This document shows, one piece after another, positions 15,264 through 54,006 of a stretch of 64,000 bases of DNA. Origin of the DNA: Nitrosopumilaceae archaeon (lineage in GTDB: Archaea > Thermoproteota > Nitrososphaeria > Nitrososphaerales > Nitrosopumilaceae); NCBI GenBank assembly GCA_965208905.1, contig OZ242365.1, forward strand, positions 1,440,001 to 1,504,000. Direction: 5' to 3'. Made by a program: the position numbers and the translations under genes. Position 1 is the stretch's first letter. The number at the start of each line of letters is the position of its first letter. The notes beneath the pieces were generated by a model that worked only from the letters and a program-made list of their open reading frames with translations, did no database searches and was not told the DNA's origin.

Positions 15264-15450
15264 GGGAATTATATACAAAAGTACAGCAGTCTTAACCGCC
15301 TACTTTTCGTTGGCTTTCACCATTCAGGGTGCGTGTGTTTGGCATGCGCTTTGGAAGCGCGGTCTTGACTACCTGCCAGTCTCCTACAACCGGTGGTGGC
15401 GTGCGGTTGCGTAGGCTTATTCGGTCCCTCAAGTCCGTCCCGGACTTGAT
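15264..15450 (-). ncRNA. Putative omega-RNA scaffold overlapping tnpB-1 3' end
   Basis: Expected position for TnpB. Hairpin aaaagtaggcggt...actgctgtactttt followed by gtatataattccc. 5' limit is a guess. Confidence 0.55.
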
Positions 15451-16704
15451 GCATAAACGACTTGCCTTTTGGGCGCGTCTTGAGTTTGGTTTTATGTAAT
15501 CATAATTGTTGTTATAGTTGTTGTCTGGACTGTACATGATGTTGAATGCGCCGTTATAGTCGGCATGACATACAGTGCCGCAGTTCCGACACTTGAACTT
15601 TCTATCATGGTTCCACCTCTCATGTACAATTTCATTATTGTGCCAAATCTTGAATCCACCGTAGCGTTCGGTGTCCTTACTACAACATGCGCCACACCGT
15701 TTGGACGTATTGTAGGGTTTAACCTCTCTGATTTCCGTATTATGCTCAGGGGCTTTCTTTGTACACCAATCACGGACTTCACCGGCCTTACTCTCTTTTA
15801 GTGTGCGGTTCTTGCCTTTGGCGCAGTTGCCCCCCTTGCGGGTAAGATTCACCAAGTTGAGGTTCTCAAATTTTACCAAATCGCAGTCCACGCACAGTTC
15901 CTTGCAAAAGTGTCTGTACTTATTCAACTGCCAGTTGTATAGCGTTTTGCGCTGCCGTTTCATGCTGTCATTTATCTTATTCCATCTGTTGCTGTTATGT
16001 GTACATCTGTCACGTTCGGACTGGAGTTTTCTAATGTGCTTGCCTATTTCATCATTGTACAATTTAAGAAGGCGTGTAGTACCGTCCGACAGTGCCACAT
16101 ATGCTGTCAACTTGCCTATGTCAACACCCGCCGTCAACCCTGTTATCTTCCTGTCCGGGATGTACTTTTGTATTGTAAGGTGTAACTCAAACTGGCGGTG
16201 ACCGCGCCGTCTATCCGCATCACTCGTTATGTCAACAATCTTGTGTGACACTACGGTTTTGATGTTGGGTAGCCGCCCCTTCGTGATGCTGAACTGTGTG
16301 TCTGACTTGGGAAATGTGACCGTGTTGTGTTTGATTCGCTTTGGTGCACCAAGGAAGAATATCGGATATGTTTTACCGTCTTTGAGATGCGTACAGTCCT
16401 TCATTTCAATACCTGCCAGGATTGCACCGCGAATTAAGTGTAGTGGTGCGCATTCCTTGGGGTCGGTATTATCCCATTCTGCCATCATGCTTTTGGCAAC
16501 CGTAACGCATGTCAATGCGCTTCGGGGATACGGACTAGGACTACTGCTGGCAGTGAACTGCACGTTCAAGTTACGACACATAACACCTAGTTCAACCCAC
16601 ATACGGCTTTCGGCCTCCAGACTTTCAACATATGAGGTGATTATACTATTTGTCTTTAGGCGGTATTTGCGGGTTCTATAGATTATACTCTTCTTGGTCT
16701 GCAT
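15292..16704 (-). CDS. tnpB: TnpB-family RNA-guided endonuclease (copy 1)
   Basis: RuvC-I GVDIG, RuvC-II FENLNL, YNTSKRCGACC...FKCRNCG zinc finger, RuvC-III HADYNGAFNI. Confidence 0.9.
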   Translation of the reverse strand: MQTKKSIIYRTRKYRLKTNSIITSYVESLEAESRMWVELGVMCRNLNVQFTASSSPSPYPRSALTCVTVAKSMMAEWDNTDPKECAPLHLIRGAILAGIEMKDCTHLKDGKTYPIFFLGAPKRIKHNTVTFPKSDTQFSITKGRLPNIKTVVSHKIVDITSDADRRRGHRQFELHLTIQKYIPDRKITGLTAGVDIGKLTAYVALSDGTTRLLKLYNDEIGKHIRKLQSERDRCTHNSNRWNKINDSMKRQRKTLYNWQLNKYRHFCKELCVDCDLVKFENLNLVNLTRKGGNCAKGKNRTLKESKAGEVRDWCTKKAPEHNTEIREVKPYNTSKRCGACCSKDTERYGGFKIWHNNEIVHERWNHDRKFKCRNCGTVCHADYNGAFNIMYSPDNNYNNNYDYIKPNSRRAQKASRLCIKSGTDLRDRISLRNRTPPPVVGDWQVVKTALPKRMPNTRTLNGESQRKVGG

Positions 16705-16818
16705 ATCACATATTATGATATTTCAGATATAAAGTTACATACCTCATATTTACTATATGATATGTATAGTACAGTCCCGACCACATGCCAGTCTGTCAAA
16801 TTACGGCGCTGTTATACG

Positions 16819-16902
16819 GCATGCCAAACACACGCACCCTGAATGGCGAAAACCAACGAAAAATAGGCGGTTAAGCCTACTGTACTTTTGTAAGTAATTC
16901 CC
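16819..16902 (+). ncRNA. Stand-alone inverted copy of tnpB-1 3' end / omega-RNA scaffold
   Basis: About 84 bp near-identical to the reverse complement of 15264-15347, ending at the same taattccc boundary. Confidence 0.55.
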
Positions 16903-26667: not shown

Positions 26668-29300
26668 TATACTTCACTGATGGCGGCTTGCGCAGCAGCC
26701 ACCATCGCTATGGGAATGCGGTGGGGCGAGGCGCTAACATAACTTATGCCAGAAGCATGACAAAACTTTACAGAGTTTGGGTCACCGCCATGCTCTCCGC
26801 ATATTCCAATCTCCATAGAACTATTGACAGAGCGTCCTTTAGATATTGCTATATTCATCAGTTCGCCAACACCATCAACATCTAGTGACTGGAATGGGTT
26901 ATGAGACAGTATCTCTTTATCCATATACTCAGGAAGGAACTTGCCTTCAGCATCCTCACGGCTAAATGAGTAAGTGGCTTGTGTCAGGTCGTTGGTGCCA
27001 AAACTAAAGAACTCAGCCGTTGTGGCCAGTGCATTCGCAGTTATGGCTGCCCGGACCACCTCTATCATAGTTCCAAAGTTTACAGAGAGTTTGCGGTTGT
27101 ATCTCTTCTCCATCTCTGCCTTTATTGTGCCGTATATCTCTTTGATATAGTTCAACTCCTCAACACTTCCCACCTGGGGAATCATTATCTGGGGGCGAGC
27201 ATCGACTTTTTCGTTGGCCAGTCTGGCAGTAGCCTCAAAGACTGCCCTGATCTGCATCTTGTATATTTCAGGGTAGGTAATACCGACTCGAACGCCTCTG
27301 TGACCCATCATGGGATTGACTTCGGCCAAATCCCTAGCCCGGCGCAGAACAGGTGTAGTGTCTTGCGCATCGGACTTTGACATCGTCTTTATCTTGTTGC
27401 TTAGGGTCTCGGGATCTGGTAAAAATTCATGTAGTGGCGGATCCAGTAATCGTATAGTAACTGGATATCCTTCCATGGCTCGTAGTATCTTGACAAAGTC
27501 ACTACGCTGTAGTTGTTGCAGTTTCTGCAGTATCTTGTTTCGCTGTGTTATATCATCAGCCATTATCATATCAACAAAGAGTCCTATTCGATCTTTGGCG
27601 TTAAACATCCTTTCAGTGCGGCACAGTCCAATTCCTTGCGCCCCATACTTGCGGGCCAGTCGGGCGGCTTCAGGAGTATCTGCATTTGCTCGGATTCCCA
27701 AGCGTTTGGAGTCTTGAGCCCAGGATAGTAATCTTTTAAAGTTTTTAGTTATCTTGGGAGATATTGTGGGTACCTCGCCTGTATATATTACGCCAGTAGA
27801 GCCATCTATTGTTATCGAGTCCCCACTATGTAGTGTGGCATTTTGGGTAGTACATGTATCTGAATCATAGTCTATGTGCAGGTCCACACAGCCGACTATG
27901 CAGGGCTTGCCCATACCGCGGGCCACCACTGCAGCGTGTGATGTCTTGCCGCCCCTGCTGGTCAATATGCCCATCGAAGCAAAGAATGCAGGTACATCTT
28001 CAGGCTTTGTCTCCTCCCGGACTAGAATGACAGGCTTTCCCTCCTCGCCTAGTGCGGTAGCCTTCTTGACATCAAAGACTACGATACCAGACGCAGCTCC
28101 GGGCGAAGCTGCAATTCCCTTGGCCAGTATTTTGTGATTTTTGGCGGCCTTTGTATCTATACTAGGGTGCAGCATCTGCTCTAGTTGATCTGCAGAGAGT
28201 CTGGATACGGCACGGTTCTTGTCTATCAGACCCTCATCAACCATCTCTACAGATGTGCGAACCATCGATACGGCATTCATTTTGGCGCTTCGGGTCTGCA
28301 GTAGATAAAAGCGACCCTGCTCCAGTGTGAACTCTATATCTTGTGGTTCAGAAAAGTGTTGCTCTAATGTATTGCAGGTCTGCACCAATGTATCGTATGC
28401 CTCGGGCAACTCCTTCTTCATGTTAGATACAGGTTTTGGTGTGCGCGTACCAGCAACAACATCCTCACCTTGTGCATTAACCAGATAATCACCAAATATT
28501 TGATTGGCTCCATTTCCAGGGTTTCGGGTAAATATTACGCCTGTGGCCGAGTCGTTACCCATGTTACCAAATACCATGGTTACTACATTCACGGCAGTAC
28601 CATCGGCAATATCCGGAGTGATGTTATTCTTTTCGCGATACACCAAGGCCCTCTCACCCATCCAGCTGGCAAATACTGCTTTTATTGCCAACTCAAGCTG
28701 CTCGTCCGGATCAGATGGGAACTCTGCTCCTGTCTGTTTCTTGCATACATCTTTGTATTTTTTCACTATATTCTGCAACGAGTTCTCATCAAGCTCGCTA
28801 TCCAGAGTAACATTGCAGCGGGTCTTCTCTGCATTCAATATATCATCAAAGTGCGAGTCATCAACACCAAAGACAACCTTGCCAAAGAGTTGTATGAATC
28901 GACGATACGAATCCCAGGCAAATCTTGGATTACCACTCTGCGTCTCCAGACCAACTACAGTATCATCATTCAAGCCTAGATTCAGTACTGTATCCATCAT
29001 CCCAGGCATTGAGATGGCTGCGCCAGAACGCACCGATACCAACAGGGGGTTGGTCTTAGACTTCCATCTCTTTCCGGTCTCTTTGTCCAGTACCGCTATC
29101 TTACGTTTTACCTCCTTCATCAACGACTTTGGTAGTGTGTTGTTGTTTGCATAGTACGACTTGCACACATCCGTGGTAATTACAAAGCCAGGAGGAACCG
29201 GTAGTTTCAAGGATGTCATCTCACATAGGCCAGCTCCTTTTCCACCAAGTAATCGGCGGCTCTGACCATATCCTTCATTGAAAAGATAGACTGTCTTCAA
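26667..29300 (-). CDS. ppdK: Pyruvate, phosphate dikinase
   Basis: LLGGKGA.L, PLLVSVRSGA..SMPGMMDT, GGKTSHAAVVARG, GIGLCRTE, FSFGTNDLTQ, GICGEHGG. Confidence 0.98.
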   Translation of the reverse strand: MKTVYLFNEGYGQSRRLLGGKGAGLCEMTSLKLPVPPGFVITTDVCKSYYANNNTLPKSLMKEVKRKIAVLDKETGKRWKSKTNPLLVSVRSGAAISMPGMMDTVLNLGLNDDTVVGLETQSGNPRFAWDSYRRFIQLFGKVVFGVDDSHFDDILNAEKTRCNVTLDSELDENSLQNIVKKYKDVCKKQTGAEFPSDPDEQLELAIKAVFASWMGERALVYREKNNITPDIADGTAVNVVTMVFGNMGNDSATGVIFTRNPGNGANQIFGDYLVNAQGEDVVAGTRTPKPVSNMKKELPEAYDTLVQTCNTLEQHFSEPQDIEFTLEQGRFYLLQTRSAKMNAVSMVRTSVEMVDEGLIDKNRAVSRLSADQLEQMLHPSIDTKAAKNHKILAKGIAASPGAASGIVVFDVKKATALGEEGKPVILVREETKPEDVPAFFASMGILTSRGGKTSHAAVVARGMGKPCIVGCVDLHIDYDSDTCTTQNATLHSGDSITIDGSTGVIYTGEVPTISPKITKNFKRLLSWAQDSKRLGIRANADTPEAARLARKYGAQGIGLCRTERMFNAKDRIGLFVDMIMADDITQRNKILQKLQQLQRSDFVKILRAMEGYPVTIRLLDPPLHEFLPDPETLSNKIKTMSKSDAQDTTPVLRRARDLAEVNPMMGHRGVRVGITYPEIYKMQIRAVFEATARLANEKVDARPQIMIPQVGSVEELNYIKEIYGTIKAEMEKRYNRKLSVNFGTMIEVVRAAITANALATTAEFFSFGTNDLTQATYSFSREDAEGKFLPEYMDKEILSHNPFQSLDVDGVGELMNIAISKGRSVNSSMEIGICGEHGGDPNSVKFCHASGISYVSASPHRIPIAMVAAAQAAISEV

Positions 29301-29338
29301 ACAATTTTCACCTATTTATGGCTCTTTTAAAGCCTTGC

Positions 29339-30776
29339 GGGGCTTATCCCTGTAACTGTAACCTAAAAACAGCCAGACTTGTAAACCCATATCATGAGTT
29401 AGGTTTTTAAAGTACTATAGCGTATAGAACGGCATGTATAGATCACATAGCGTCCGCATAGACCTGACACGCTCTCAGGCGCGTCACATATCCAAAATAC
29501 GGAACTCACAGCGGTTCGTGTATAATTGGGCCGTAGAGAAGCTGCTGGCCGACCCCACACTCACTACATATGATCTCTCCAGGGAGTTTACCAAACTTCG
29601 CAGATGTACACCGCACCTACAGGAAGTAGAGCGCATATACCAAAATACGGCCATCCAGCAGGCCCGCACTGCTGCGGATGTCTCGAACAAATACGGCAAC
29701 GGCAAACTAGGTTTCCGCTCCAAAAAGCTTGACAATACAAAGGCAGTATCATGTGATGTACAGCCTGTATATGTGGACAACAGACACGCGTCATTGCCGG
29801 GCCTTGGTGTTGTTGAGTTGCCTGAGGAGCAGCCATACCAATTTCCACACAACTGGCTGTATGGCTCAAGGTCTTTCCGTTTGGTATGTATAACACCAAA
29901 GTCGTGGGGGCACGTCAAGTCATGTGACCATATCTACCGGTTGCACATAACATATGACGTACCTACACCCGAACGGCGCGCCAAGACCGGTGTTGTTGCC
30001 GGCATAGATAGGGGGATAACAAATCCAACGGTTGTCTGTAAGACAGACCATAACGCCTCAAATATAACATCATACGATACAGCAACCGCATTCCGCACTA
30101 ACCGTACATGGAATGATGATGCGCGTCGTACCATATCACACCGCAACAAGCACTCCCGTACAACATACAAGATGAAACGCAAGCGAGAAAAGTACAATCG
30201 TGGTAATGCGAATGACCGCGAGTATGCAGAATGGTTATTGGCCAAGAAGATATGCGAGGGTGTGGATGTGATATATGTCGAGCAGCTCCACCTTGAGGCC
30301 ATGAGCAGGCGCGGTGGTAGGCACAAAAAGGGCATGAATCGTGGTATGAGGTTCATTCGGCATTATGCAATACTGCGAAAGATACGCATTGTCGCAGAGC
30401 GGTTGGGCATCCGTGTAGTAGAGGTGAATCCAAAACACACGAGTCAGGAGTGCAGTATATGCGGCTACACAAACAAGGAGAATCGAAATGGGGAGACATT
30501 CAAGTGTCTCAAATGTGACCACATGGCAAACGCCGACGGCAATGCGTCGGTGAATATAATTCAACGGGGGACCGGTATGAAGGTTCCCGCGGGGGAAGGA
30601 ATAGCCCTCGAAAGGCGTGAAATGGGCCGGACCCGGAAGCCACCTGTTTGTGCAGTTCCGGACGCCAAGCGGCGGCGTGAGAATCAAGCGTGCAATCGAC
30701 CCAAAACATCAAGCGTCATGAAGCACCTGGGAATGTACGCGTATGTTACGTATGTTCAGTAAGGTGGATAATTCCC
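29339..30776 (+). mobile_element. tnpB-only element with terminal inverted repeats and 8-bp target duplication
   Basis: agccttgc at 29331-29338 and 30777-30784. Left end ggggcttatcc versus right-end reverse complement gggaattatcc (9/11). Confidence 0.8.
29434..30762 (+). CDS. tnpB: TnpB-family RNA-guided endonuclease (copy 2)
   Basis: RFVYNWA, RuvC-I GIDRG, RuvC-II VEQL, HTSQECSICG...FKCLKC, RuvC-III NADGNASVNI. Confidence 0.93.
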   Translation: MYRSHSVRIDLTRSQARHISKIRNSQRFVYNWAVEKLLADPTLTTYDLSREFTKLRRCTPHLQEVERIYQNTAIQQARTAADVSNKYGNGKLGFRSKKLDNTKAVSCDVQPVYVDNRHASLPGLGVVELPEEQPYQFPHNWLYGSRSFRLVCITPKSWGHVKSCDHIYRLHITYDVPTPERRAKTGVVAGIDRGITNPTVVCKTDHNASNITSYDTATAFRTNRTWNDDARRTISHRNKHSRTTYKMKRKREKYNRGNANDREYAEWLLAKKICEGVDVIYVEQLHLEAMSRRGGRHKKGMNRGMRFIRHYAILRKIRIVAERLGIRVVEVNPKHTSQECSICGYTNKENRNGETFKCLKCDHMANADGNASVNIIQRGTGMKVPAGEGIALERREMGRTRKPPVCAVPDAKRRRENQACNRPKTSSVMKHLGMYAYVTYVQ

Positions 30777-31250
30777 AGCCTTGCCATGAAAGTATTGTGG
30801 GTTTTGCAGAATGGTATCGTGTGGAGTATAGTGTTTTTTTATCTCTTGGTGCGTACACAATATTATATGTTGTAAGGTGCCAGAAGGTCCAACTTCAGAT
30901 GTGTTATACGGTTGGCGTTACAGACACAAAATAGATGACATATACAATATATTGTCAAAAATTATCTGTGAATAGCATCTTTTATTCCACACCAAATAGT
31001 GTCCAAAAACATGAAAGTTAATTTTTGGGGCTGGGAAGATACGGTGACCTGGTGTATACTGGAAAGTTTGTGACTCGGAGTGGAAGGGAGGTCGTTATAC
31101 ATTAGGAGTGTGGAGTCATATATGAGGTCGCATACTTACATTTCCAGCCTAGGTGTTTTAACTGAATGGGAGCCATACACTGAACAGTTCAGCCTTGACA
31201 GAACCATTCAATCAAATAAAATTTTTAAAAAAGCGCATCATAATATAACT

Positions 31251-31525: not shown

Positions 31526-32635
31526 TAGTTGGGAGCATAAATAATCCTACATTCTGTTAGAAAGGCATAAATGATCAAAATTATTACCTAATTATATGAA
31601 TAACCAAACTAATGCCCAAAAAATAAAGGCTGCCCTAAAACAGACTAAGAGTACAACGCAATACGCCCGTATCGTAGCCGTAAATATGGTGCGCGTTAAA
31701 GGATATACCGTCTCTGCGGCAGCGGATGTGCTTGGTGTAGATCGTAGCACCATATATGATTGGCTTAATGTCTACGACCATAAAGGCCTGGATGGCCTCG
31801 CCGATGGTGCGAGGCCTGGCCGTCCATCTTTCGTACCGCGCCACACATTAGAGAATATAATTAACAATACCAAACAATTCACCGCCTACGGATTTGTTAA
31901 ACTGGCTGAGAAAAAGACCGGCATAAAATACAGCGAATCGCAAGCGCGCCGTATCCTTAGGTCTCTTGGGTTTACCATACGGAAGACTCCCCGGATATCC
32001 GACCGAATTCCACCAAGGAAAGATCTCGAAATCTGGCAGAAAGATGCCAAAAATGAGATAGAAACATTGGAAAAAGACGGATTCACGCCTATAATGTCGG
32101 ATGAAAGCCACCAAAATTTGAGCATGTTTGGCAGCGGCGCAGTCTATACACGCGGTGATGCCATACCGGTACAAACACCACTCGGCAACCAGCGCCAGAC
32201 CATATACGGCGGCATCACGCTGGACGGGCAGACATGCTATATGGCCGCTAGCAAGGCCAACGACAGGTCCTTTATCCGGTATTTGAACAAGACGAAAAAA
32301 CGGTTCGGCAAGGTTGCCGTAATACTGGACAATGCCGCATATCACAACTCTAGTCGTGTAAAGCGATACTTGAAAAAGAATAATAATTTCGTCAAACTGA
32401 TATTCTTGCCTCCATACTCGCCGTTTTTAAATCCGGCCGAATGGTTATGGCTCAACGGCAAGGCAAGGATACGGCGAACTTTCAGGCGGCCGGCCAAAAG
32501 ATATTTCCGAAGAAAAATCATGCTGATATACGAGTCACTGGAAATAAAGTTTGATCCGCGCAATATTCTGTTCAGAAATTTGGACAGAATCCTGCCGGTG
32601 TAAAACTGGTGTCGGGTTATTTATGCACCTAACTA
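31526..32635 (+). mobile_element. IS630-family insertion sequence
   Basis: Inverted ends tagttgggagcataaataatcctaca / tagttaggtgcataaataacccgaca; TA duplicated at 31524-25 and 32636-37. Confidence 0.93.
31596..32603 (+). CDS. IS630-family DDE transposase
   Basis: HTH, RPGRP, DES, ILDNAAYH, FLPPYSP.LNP.E.LW. Confidence 0.95.
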   Translation: MNNQTNAQKIKAALKQTKSTTQYARIVAVNMVRVKGYTVSAAADVLGVDRSTIYDWLNVYDHKGLDGLADGARPGRPSFVPRHTLENIINNTKQFTAYGFVKLAEKKTGIKYSESQARRILRSLGFTIRKTPRISDRIPPRKDLEIWQKDAKNEIETLEKDGFTPIMSDESHQNLSMFGSGAVYTRGDAIPVQTPLGNQRQTIYGGITLDGQTCYMAASKANDRSFIRYLNKTKKRFGKVAVILDNAAYHNSSRVKRYLKKNNNFVKLIFLPPYSPFLNPAEWLWLNGKARIRRTFRRPAKRYFRRKIMLIYESLEIKFDPRNILFRNLDRILPV

Positions 32636-43099: not shown

Positions 43100-43428
43100 A
43101 ACTCAAAGATGGCTATGTATAATCGGTTGACTCTGACAGAATAATTTTAGCGAGTTTTTTATTTGTGTCGTCAGAAGCTAATCTGGCAAGGAGGACAAAG
43201 ATTCATACTTTGAGCCCAAGAAAAACTACACCGGTAAGGGGATCAGCATCTGGAGTAGGATAGCCAGATTGTGAAAAAGAGCATCTAGGCCGATTATACA
43301 AAGTCTACAAAGCCCGTACCACGATAGAGGTTCTTGTGGTACGGCGGCAACAAACCAACGCTGTATAGGCCGCTATACAAGGCGCCAAGAAAAGACACAA
43401 GTAATGTTTACTTATGTATATAATTCCC
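43100..43428 (+). pseudogene. Decayed tnpB 3' end with retained omega-RNA-like hairpins
   Basis: TGKGISIWSRI and TNQRC echo tnpB-2 AGEGIALERRE and ENQAC. Stems at 43314-43344 and 43362-43379. Ends tatataattccc. Confidence 0.6.
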
Positions 43429-52635: not shown

Positions 52636-53781
52636 ATGTCATATTTTGTTGCGGTAGCCGTCCTGTGTATGGGGTTTGGTGTTTGGAGTGCGTATGGTGA
52701 GTTAAGCCTAGAGCCGGTACTGACTGATCTGGATACTCCCTGGGATGTGGCGTTTGGTGATGAATGGATGTATGTGACCACCCGGCCCGGTATACTGTAT
52801 GGCGTACATGAGGGAGAGGTCACACCACTGTTGCATATGCGTGTGAGTGGTGGTGAGGGAGGAATGCTAGGAGTTGCCACACATGAGGGAATGATATATG
52901 TGTATTATACTGATATAAACAATGGAAATCGTGTGTCTCGATATACGCATACTGAAGATGGTCTCAAGCACGACATAGATATCATACAGGACATACCATC
53001 TGCGGCAATTCACAATGGCGGCCGCATACGGTTTGGCCCAGACGCGATGCTTTATGTGACTACCGGAGATGCTGGGAATCCCAACCACTCACAGGATGTA
53101 AACTCATTGGCTGGCAAGATACTTCGACTCAATCCTGATGGAACCATACCTGCCGACAATCCTGTACCGGGAAGTCCCGTATATGCATATGGTCTGCGCA
53201 ATCCACAGGGAATAACATGGGATGCCAACAACACAATGTATGTTACGGATCATGGTCCTTCGGGACTCTTTGAGAATGCGCATGATGAAATAAACCAAAT
53301 AATACCGTATGGTAACTACGGCTGGCCGGATTCTGTAGGTGACCGCGTTACGTCTGGAACAATAGCCCCTCTGATACACTCAGGTGCGGTAACCTGGGCG
53401 CCGTCTGGCTTGGAGTTTATCAACGGTTCTGGTATATTGGAGTGGGAGGGGATGCTGCTGTATGGTGCCCTGCGCGGAGCGCATTTGGGCACAGTAAATA
53501 TAGATGGTTCTGGCCACGCCACATATCTAGATGGTGAGATTGGTCGGATACGTGCCCCCATACAGCATCCCAACGGAACCGTATACGTGATAACCAGCAA
53601 TACTGATGGGCGCGGGTTGCCTTATGAGGATCACGACATGCTGTTGCGCGTGACCCGTGACATGTCTATACCCGACAAATACGAATACCTAGCCGATATT
53701 CTGTGGAGTATGTACCGTGATGGACACCTGACCGTGCAACAACTGCATGTGGCACTCGGGTATGTATCTTCGCTCAGTTAG
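52636..53781 (+). CDS. PQQ-dependent glucose/sorbosone dehydrogenase-family protein
   Basis: GEGGMLG, HNGGRIRFGPD..LYVTTGD, AGKILR, YGLRNPQG, NYGWP, APSG. Confidence 0.93.
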   Translation: MSYFVAVAVLCMGFGVWSAYGELSLEPVLTDLDTPWDVAFGDEWMYVTTRPGILYGVHEGEVTPLLHMRVSGGEGGMLGVATHEGMIYVYYTDINNGNRVSRYTHTEDGLKHDIDIIQDIPSAAIHNGGRIRFGPDAMLYVTTGDAGNPNHSQDVNSLAGKILRLNPDGTIPADNPVPGSPVYAYGLRNPQGITWDANNTMYVTDHGPSGLFENAHDEINQIIPYGNYGWPDSVGDRVTSGTIAPLIHSGAVTWAPSGLEFINGSGILEWEGMLLYGALRGAHLGTVNIDGSGHATYLDGEIGRIRAPIQHPNGTVYVITSNTDGRGLPYEDHDMLLRVTRDMSIPDKYEYLADILWSMYRDGHLTVQQLHVALGYVSSLS

Positions 53782-53789
53782 GTATAGCG

Positions 53790-54006
53790 GATACGTTCGA
53801 TAAGGGAATTGTACCAGGGTATTCCACGCAGATGTAAACGCTGCGTCCAACATCCTGTATCGGGCGGCGGGGAACGTCGTCCTAAGACGGCCGGGGCATA
53901 AAGAGGGCTACAAACCAACACCCGCCATGCTCCGTTCCATACAACAGGGCCGTCAGAAAATGAATGAGTGTACAGCCAAGGCTGTGTACTTTTCTATATA
54001 ATTCCC
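53790..54006 (+). pseudogene. tnpB 3' remnant with omega-RNA-like end
   Basis: NCTRVFHADVNAASNILYR (zinc finger end plus RuvC-III), hairpin agtgtacagcc-aa-ggctgtgtact, ends ctatataattccc. Confidence 0.8.

Follow-up and report, generated by a model that had tools for sequence, protein, structure and literature searches.

A tnpB gene between terminal inverted repeats and an 8-bp target-site duplication in a sponge-associated archaeon, probably moved by an IS1595-family transposase

Structure of the element and its target site

The window analysed here is a stretch of 64,000 nt (C1:1440001-1504000; contig OZ242365.1 of assembly GCA_965208905.1) from the genome (G000) of a sponge-associated Nitrosopumilaceae archaeon, which is a single contig (C1) of 2.21 Mb with a completeness of 99.57%. 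At window positions 29339-30776 lies an element of 1438 bp whose sole cargo is one intact tnpB gene. The element is bounded by terminal inverted repeats (TIRs) and an exact 8-bp target-site duplication (TSD), and it is real, beyond chance. The features that delimit it are listed below.

29331..29338, no strand: left copy of the TSD, AGCCTTGC, placed by the sequence and by the single copy in the empty site of a related genome (G005)
29339..29362, + strand: left TIR (GGGGCTTATCCCTGTAACTGTAAC), where homology among the copies begins; 14 of 20 bases match the right end
29434..30762, + strand: tnpB open reading frame, 442 aa, with RuvC and zinc-finger motifs and a ratio of nonsynonymous to synonymous divergence (dN/dS) of 0.09-0.20 over codons 1-365 among copies
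30753..30776, - strand: right TIR (GGGAATTATCCACCTTACTGAACA on the - strand), with the tnpB stop codon (30760-30762) inside it
30777..30784, no strand: right copy of the TSD, AGCCTTGC, placed by the sequence and by the G005 empty site

The tips of the element read GGGGCTTATCC (29339-29349) and GGATAATTCCC (30766-30776), and the inverted-repeat match of the two ends is imperfect, covering 9 of the 11 terminal bases when read by eye, 9 of 14 and 14 of 20. Directly outside them AGCCTTGC is exact on both sides, at 29331-29338 and 30777-30784; the chance of an exact 8-mer match at fixed positions is about 1.5e-5 per copy. Homology among the copies in the genome is bounded exactly by the proposed ends, running from position 40/41 to 1477-1479 of a query that starts at 29300.

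In a search of 30 relatives, the uninterrupted site was found in G005, a member of the same genus. Its left flank matches through AGCCTTGC with 98% identity, its right flank matches from AGCCTTGC onward, and the left and right matches overlap by exactly those 8 bases, giving the alignment ...GGCTCTTTTAA AGCCTTGC CATGAAAG... with a single AGCCTTGC. Since the uninterrupted site has one copy, AGCCTTGC is a true TSD that arose at insertion. A first-pass annotation of this DNA, made from the letters alone, had described a tnpB element with TIRs, an exact 8-bp TSD and no tnpA, lying beside ppdK. The sequence, the copies and the empty site bear this description out, the left neighbour of the element is indeed the pyruvate phosphate dikinase gene (ppdK), and the empty allele on which the annotation had made the matter depend holds one AGCCTTGC, not two.

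Copies in the genome and in relatives

The family comprises 8 copies in the genome, at 8 different sites and with 8 different flanking 8-mers, which are exact duplicates in 6 copies and match in 7 of 8 bases in one and 6 of 8 in another. The other copies are 88-94% identical to the query copy. Subfamily A, to which the copy under study belongs, has 4 members with the ends GGGACTTATCC.../...GGATAATTCCC, and subfamily B has 4 members with a perfect 20-bp TIR, GGGAATTATATACCTGGGTA. Two subfamily B copies at different sites (c5 and c6) are 99.86% identical over 1420 bp, indicating that the family moved recently. One subfamily B copy is split by a 10.3-kb insertion (C1:1098872-1110533), with its outer 8-bp duplication TGTGCCAA intact. 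This insertion contains an rve-type integrase gene, a gene encoding a SWIM + DDE_Tnp_IS240 protein, an Eco57I-like methylase gene and others.

The same TIR type was found on elements of relatives in the genus that are 67-70% identical in nucleotide sequence or similar only in the 3' third. At 11 such loci (9 from G009, one each from G007 and G002) the TSD was exact in 9, matched in 7 of 8 bases in one and was unresolved in one, and a contig of a further metagenome-assembled genome also had an exact TSD. Among 16 loci of G006 and G001, the TSD was exact at 6, matched in 7 of 8 bases at 4 and in 6 of 8 at 1, and was poor at 2, while 3 loci were without a recognisable end pair. The two loci with poor TSDs are the two-gene IS1595-tnpB elements of G001 that are described below. 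The same architecture is present in at least 5 other genomes.

The TnpB protein and the putative omega-RNA

The encoded protein matches Cas12f1-like_TNB (PF07282, 2.5e-18) and HTH_OrfB_IS605 (PF12323) above the cut-offs, and OrfB_IS605 (PF01385) with 28.4 bits, slightly below the cut-off of 30.5 bits. Among solved structures it is closest to Cas12f and TnpB. When it is aligned to Cas12f (7l48), GIDRG, VEQLHLE, NADGNAS and the CxxC...CxxC finger line up with nuclease motifs, and the first three presumably hold the catalytic residues of an intact RuvC acidic triad. The dN/dS over codons 1-365 indicates that the protein is under purifying selection.

The gene has a leader of 95 nt between the left TIR and the ATG, and a stop codon inside the right TIR, 14 nt from the element end. 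It is the only long open reading frame; no Zn-ribbon + DDE transposase is encoded, and the element is filed here as a non-autonomous IS1595-family derivative. Further features within and beside the gene are as follows.

29404..29412, + strand: TTTTTAAAG, probable archaeal TATA box, ~26 nt upstream of the tnpB start codon, which would give a leaderless mRNA
30530..30776, + strand: putative omega-RNA (right-end RNA, reRNA) scaffold, from the last ~77 tnpB codons to the last base of the element, marked by suppressed synonymous change and near-invariance
30777..30796, + strand: predicted guide segment (TSD plus right flank) of a read-through omega-RNA, of assumed length and placed where the conserved block and the similarity among copies end (30776)

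In the subfamily B copies, TTTATAAAG stands at the position of the TATA box.

The scaffold was proposed from the divergence among copies. Synonymous divergence is 0.17-0.43 over codons 1-365 versus 0.03-0.20 from codon 366 to the end, and it is lower from codon 366 in all 14 divergent copy pairs, two- to tenfold in most. The last ~215-235 nt are near-invariant to the final base across species with elements that are otherwise 67-70% identical. The conserved 3' block resembles a putative omega-RNA scaffold that would overlap the tnpB 3' end and the right TIR, with a guide beginning in the TSD. Metatranscriptome contigs from four sponge runs of one study cover ppdK; within the tnpB coding region there are some short pieces of low depth, and none over the 3' end. 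Assembled RNA contigs cannot show RNA ends and the pieces may derive from other copies or strains, so these data speak neither for nor against an omega-RNA.

The IS1595 transposase as partner

Neither of the transposases that usually accompany the two classical tnpB groups was detected in the 99.57%-complete genome: Y1_Tnp (PF01797) gave 0 matches, with 6 of 14 control genomes positive, and Resolvase (PF00239, serine TnpA) gave 0 matches, with 12 of 14 control genomes positive. DDE_Tnp_IS1595 (PF12762) matched 11 times, and four of these matches are strong, their open frames of 320-323 codons encoding Zn-ribbon + DDE_Tnp_IS1595 proteins. Each of the four genes is enclosed in an element with GGGAATTATA... 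TIRs and an exact 8-bp TSD, the element lengths being 2131, 2131, 2837 and 2690 bp. Because the two 2131-bp copies are 99.95% identical, this source of IS1595 transposase was recently active.

The termini connect these elements with the tnpB cassettes. The 13-mer GGGAATTATATAC was counted 40 times in the genome, where 0.10 occurrences would be expected, and it stands at the tips of two IS1595 elements (2837 and 2690 bp), of the subfamily B copies and of other tnpB cassettes. Subfamily B and sister TnpB cassettes have 13 terminal bases in common with IS1595 elements. The right tip of the element under study agrees with GGGAATTATA in 9 of 10 bases (read by eye). Miniatures of 45-430 bp without tnpB carry the same termini and the same TSD length.

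In the relative G001, transposase and tnpB are physically linked. One two-gene element (within C9:20900-25100 or C1:152300-156300 of that genome) has a length of 2562 bp, GGGAATTAT.. TIRs and the exact TSD GATACCGG, and encodes first an IS1595 transposase and then TnpB on the same strand. The transposase (320 aa; PF12762, 1.2e-35) is 55% identical to that of the genome under study, and the TnpB (441 aa) is 58% identical to the TnpB described here, with its stop codon 5 nt from the right end. A second copy in G001 has 2601 bp and the exact TSD TCGCGGTA, and its transposase gene is frameshifted. Transposase and tnpB travel as one unit in the relative, indicating that the studied cassette is the transposase-less form. 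Mobilisation in trans by an IS1595 transposase appears well supported by the shared ends, the co-occurrence and the physical linkage in the relative.

These results agree with what the first-pass annotation had expected of the family. It had called for other copies with TIRs and 8-bp TSDs, which were found in the genome and in relatives, and for an autonomous partner, which is provided by IS1595-family elements with the same termini and TSD length in the genome. A competing Y1 or serine TnpA was not found in this 99.6%-complete single-contig genome. Its central suggestion, movement by a DDE transposase in trans, is strengthened by the relative in which IS1595 transposase and tnpB share one TIR- and TSD-bounded element.

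Several further observations were made on these and neighbouring transposons. Between the two genes of the G001 elements (C9:20900-25100 and C1:152300-156300) stands an internal right-TIR-like sequence, as would be left if IS1595 had captured a tnpB module lying downstream that brought a right end of its own. The 2131-bp IS1595 element carries a passenger tRNA-Leu(CAA) gene (C1:1212908-1212991), its 99.95%-identical copy being located at C1:675271-677401. In the IS1595 elements at C1:1043578-1046414 and C1:1770047-1772736 the passenger is an N6/N4 DNA methylase fused to an HNH nuclease domain. An IS630-type transposase gene (DDE_3 + HTH; window 31596-32603, + strand) is found some 800 bp beyond the right end of the tnpB element and appears unrelated to the 8-bp duplication.

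Proposed mechanism and alternative explanations

We consider it very probable that the element belongs, as a non-autonomous form, to an IS1595-family lineage of the cut-and-paste type, with tnpB and an RNA scaffold encoded over its 3' end as cargo. An IS1595 transposase made elsewhere in the genome would bind the GGG(A/G)(A/C)TTAT... ends and move the cassette in trans. Transcription of tnpB would start from the TATA box within the leader of 95 nt, the final ~230-250 nt of the element, including the right TIR, would yield the omega-RNA scaffold, and read-through into the flank would supply a guide starting with the TSD. The TnpB-RNA complex is then predicted to recognise and cut only an unoccupied or precisely excised site, where one TSD is followed by the right flank, and recombination of the cut site with an occupied copy would restore the element. 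The occupied left junction, with 8 bases in common with the guide, should be spared.

A number of results weigh against this reading or parts of it. With regard to the ends, the left tip of the element matches the IS1595 GGGAATTATA in only 7 of 10 bases (read by eye), subfamily A ends diverge from the TIR of the IS1595 elements after about base 10, and no IS1595 element with A-type ends was found in this genome. The subfamily A copies are 90-94% identical, indicating that they have not moved very recently. In addition, the genome holds 13 SWIM/IS240-type DDE genes, which are also makers of 8-bp TSDs, with TIRs that differ (GGTTCTGTCAA.., GGAACTGTCAA..). With regard to the RNA, RNAalifold predicts 59 pairs, of which 34 never vary and 4 show compensatory change; the latter number was attained in 8 of 500 shuffles, and the alignment tested had itself served to derive the structure. 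The single-sequence fold of the 3' 242 nt is not distinctive (z = -0.85), and Rfam gave no match at E up to 1. Finally, no conserved motif was found left of the TSD in the 8 copies (6 positions and the mirrored right flank) or in ~20 copies of relatives, the strongest flank preference among the 8 copies being for A at -1, present in 5 (uncorrected p = 0.04). No target-adjacent motif (TAM) can be read from these flanks, so that any homing role in this family is hypothetical.

The last result bears directly on two statements of the first-pass annotation. It had put forward TTTTAA, beside the left TSD, as the TAM; this is not supported, no such motif being conserved in the family. More likely, TTTTAA belongs to the opposite strand as the TATA box of ppdK. 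The minus-strand TTAAAAG at window 29322-29330, 8 bp from the element, is well placed as a candidate for that box, and the 5' part of ppdK is still covered by RNA contigs, so that ppdK is apparently not silenced. The annotation had also foreseen an unusual self-targeting problem at the occupied left junction. Of a guide of ~16-20 nt, no more than 8 bases match there, which should be too few for cleavage by TnpB, and such a problem is therefore not supported.

Among the other explanations, the most substantial is that the cassette was moved by SWIM + DDE_Tnp_IS240 (IS6-like) transposases and not by IS1595 enzymes. Thirteen genes of this kind exceed the family cut-off in the genome, two of them sit in elements with perfect TIRs and exact 8-bp TSDs, and another TnpB family (1370-bp elements with GGNNCTGTCAAATC ends) has ends like theirs. 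Their TIRs (GGTTCTGTCAAG.., GGAACTGTCAAA..) are, however, unlike GGGAATTAT; it is the IS1595 elements that have 10-13 terminal bases in common with the TnpB cassettes, and it is an IS1595 transposase gene that is physically joined to this tnpB lineage in G001, which makes such an origin improbable. Somewhat less credible still is a tnpB element of the IS200/IS605 type (IS1341 group) nested in an IS1595-derived miniature with hidden ends of its own. The internal right-TIR-like sequence of the G001 two-gene element does show assembly from separate modules. Against a nested guest, the right TIR contains the tnpB stop, the conserved 3' block extends to the very end of the element, the ATG follows the left TIR after no more than 95 nt, every copy moved as a single unit with its TSDs on the outside, and the genome has no Y1 transposase to move an inner element.

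There is also a very small chance that TnpB itself, alone or with host factors, drives mobility and that TIR and TSD are its signature, as 75 TnpB-domain matches in a genome without TnpA might suggest. The same termini and TSD length occur on the 4 IS1595 elements and on the 45-430-bp miniatures without tnpB, which argues against it, and TnpB is established as an RNA-guided nuclease that is dispensable for transposition. Coincidental inverted ends and a coincidental 8-mer repeat around an ordinary IS605 or IS607 relic deserve practically no weight: the Pfam names of the protein, and nothing else, point that way, while 8 copies have 8 different TSDs, the architecture recurs in at least 5 other genomes, and the empty-site alignment rules the relic out. 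A non-autonomous IS1595-family element is accordingly the explanation retained.

Other tnpB families and their flanking motifs

The TnpB TNB profile gave 75 matches in 2.2 Mb, 74 of them over the cut-off, and these 74 loci were scanned for inverted ends with an exact 8-bp duplication. Four recurring end types were found at 33 loci: GGGAATTAT.. (17), GGTTCCTCCCGCAA.. (12), GGNNCTGTCAAATC.. (2) and TGGGCTG.. (2). At 6 loci the pairs had unrelated ends and were taken as chance, and for 35 no pair was returned, many of these having 7/8 duplications or rearranged flanks. Two elements encoding SWIM + DDE_Tnp_IS240 proteins have ends similar to the GGNNCTGTCAA ends. For the GGTTCCTCCCGCAA-ended TnpB families no transposase partner was found in the genome, where one 1536-bp element with those ends contains broken open reading frames only.

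Left of the left TSD, sister families show base preferences. Of 15 copies of the 1460-1479-bp tnpB family, 13 have G at -1 (p = 3e-7), 10 have T at -3 and 10 have A at -4; at the mirrored right position, 4 of the 15 have G. Among six additional left junctions G was seen at 5, which brings the count to 18 of 21; four of the six are from another species, and 3 of these four have G. Of 12 copies of the 1608-1644-bp family, 11 have TA at -2/-1, and in 9 the duplication opens with C; TA also stands at three additional left junctions (14 of 15 in all), and one solo right-type end has TTA outside. In the 1513-1519-bp family, T is found at -3 and at -2 in 7 of 8 copies each and G at -1 in 5 of 8. The mirrored right flank of the 1460-1479-bp and 1608-1644-bp families showed no motif.

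The left and right TIRs of the motif-bearing sister families are identical over 24-25 bases. Because of this identity the transposase should not tell left from right, indicating that the asymmetry of the flanks must come from the cargo. The motifs stand where a TAM is expected if the guide starts with the TSD. They read (A)T-N-G, (T/A)TA followed by C, and ATATTG (for example at C1:1760171-1761636 and C1:239554-241169), and may be TAMs. The one-sided motif would then mark TAM-adjacent copies that were kept or driven by TnpB, whereas the rival reading is an orientation-dependent target preference.

From these flanks a broader and tentative model may be drawn, possible and yet somewhat doubtful, in which TnpB has become a functional part of DDE transposons that make TSDs (IS1595-type, IS6-like and others). 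The guide would start at the TSD, the TAM would lie just 5' of the left TSD, the choice of site would be blind to the TAM, and TAM-adjacent copies, being protected or driven, would accumulate.

Additional tnpB loci and remnants were noted. A fifth tnpB group has AGAGTTTATGCGTAATCG ends and apparent 3-bp duplications (AAC, AAT and ACT, read by eye) at C1:1014577, 1028826, 188483 and 63440, which would fit IS5-type partners. Two 1639-bp tnpB cassettes of the third family (470 aa), at window 15264-16902 (C1:1455264-1456902) and at C1:2049469-2051107, have flanking 8-mers that are swapped between opposite sides, which points to rearrangement by recombination between copies. Window 52887-54006 is a remnant of ~1.1 kb with a GGGAATTATATA-type end, the last 200 bp of which match the 1466-bp tnpB family, and window 43409-43428 is a solo GGGAATTATATA-type end.

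Relation to known systems and meaning

The ISNwi1 group of the IS1595 family is reported in ISfinder to have ends of the form ggnnatTAT, 8-bp duplications and versions with passenger genes. The element resembles that family in its GG-initial TIRs with ..TTAT and its 8-bp TSD, and the partner elements carry passengers (the methylase-HNH gene and tRNA-Leu). It differs in having no transposase and in a cargo that is an RNA-guided nuclease, whose gene and putative RNA overlap the right TIR. With the tnpB-only members of IS200/IS605 (IS1341 group) it shares a single tnpB gene of ~1.4 kb, many copies and no transposase in cis. Unlike IS607, it has TIRs and a TSD, and no serine recombinase was matched in the genome.

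Fanzor was reportedly described by Bao and Jurka in 2013 in eukaryotic and viral cut-and-paste transposons. The element is like Fanzor as presented by Yoon et al. 2023 (PMC10711439) in that a nuclease of the TnpB family lies between TIRs with TSDs and an RNA region lies at the transposon 3' end; the legends of Figures 4 and 5 of that paper mark the TSD on predicted reRNA structures. It is unlike the Fanzors treated there in that these have eukaryotic or viral hosts and other transposase superfamilies, while the host here is archaeal and the partner IS1595. According to a 2026 review (PMC13565253), IS200/IS605 elements are without TIRs and TSD and insert 3' of a fixed tetra- or pentanucleotide, in contrast to the present element, which has TIRs and a TSD and shares no motif left of its 8 copies. 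The DDE partners of TnpB listed in that review are ISL2, IS630 and IS1031, and the benefit of TnpB to DDE transposons is presented as an open question.

Six DDE-associated TnpB branches (DDE-1 to DDE-6), all with inverted terminal repeats, are reported by Altae-Tran et al. 2023 (PNAS, PMC10691335), together with solo TnpBs with the same ends that the authors took to be mobilised in trans. The novelty implied by the first-pass annotation therefore falls away in this respect: DDE-borne TnpB has been known since 2023. As in the DDE-TnpBs of that paper, tnpB here lies between inverted repeats, its 3' end is near the transposon end, and transposase-less copies have the same ends. The differences from its main text, where IS630 is the only family named and IS1595 is not mentioned, are the IS1595 partner and a TSD that is 8 bp long and variable in sequence; IS1595 is also not among the partners listed in PMC13565253. 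Literature searches for TnpB with IS1595, for TnpB with TIR, TSD and DDE, and for TnpB in Nitrosopumilus or sponge symbionts returned no description of this architecture. Added here are the empty site, the two-gene relative, the sister families with their one-sided motifs, and a genome without TnpA that is rich in DDE-ended tnpB cassettes.

The elements together form a natural series for an RNA-guided nuclease on a prokaryotic DDE transposon, comprising transposase-only, two-gene and tnpB-only forms, miniatures, and a dated insertion with its empty site. Compact nuclease-RNA pairs of this kind are candidates for genome-editing tools. The genome itself is an extreme case: within 2.2 Mb it has 75 matches to the TnpB domain and neither a Y1 nor a serine TnpA, and its tnpB cassettes show at least 4 kinds of inverted ends with 8-bp duplications. 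The published homing model of TnpB was worked out for the scarless excision of IS605 and IS607. If the motifs of the sister families are TAMs, they would be evidence, at the level of sequence, that cut-and-paste elements with variable TSDs persist with the help of TnpB.

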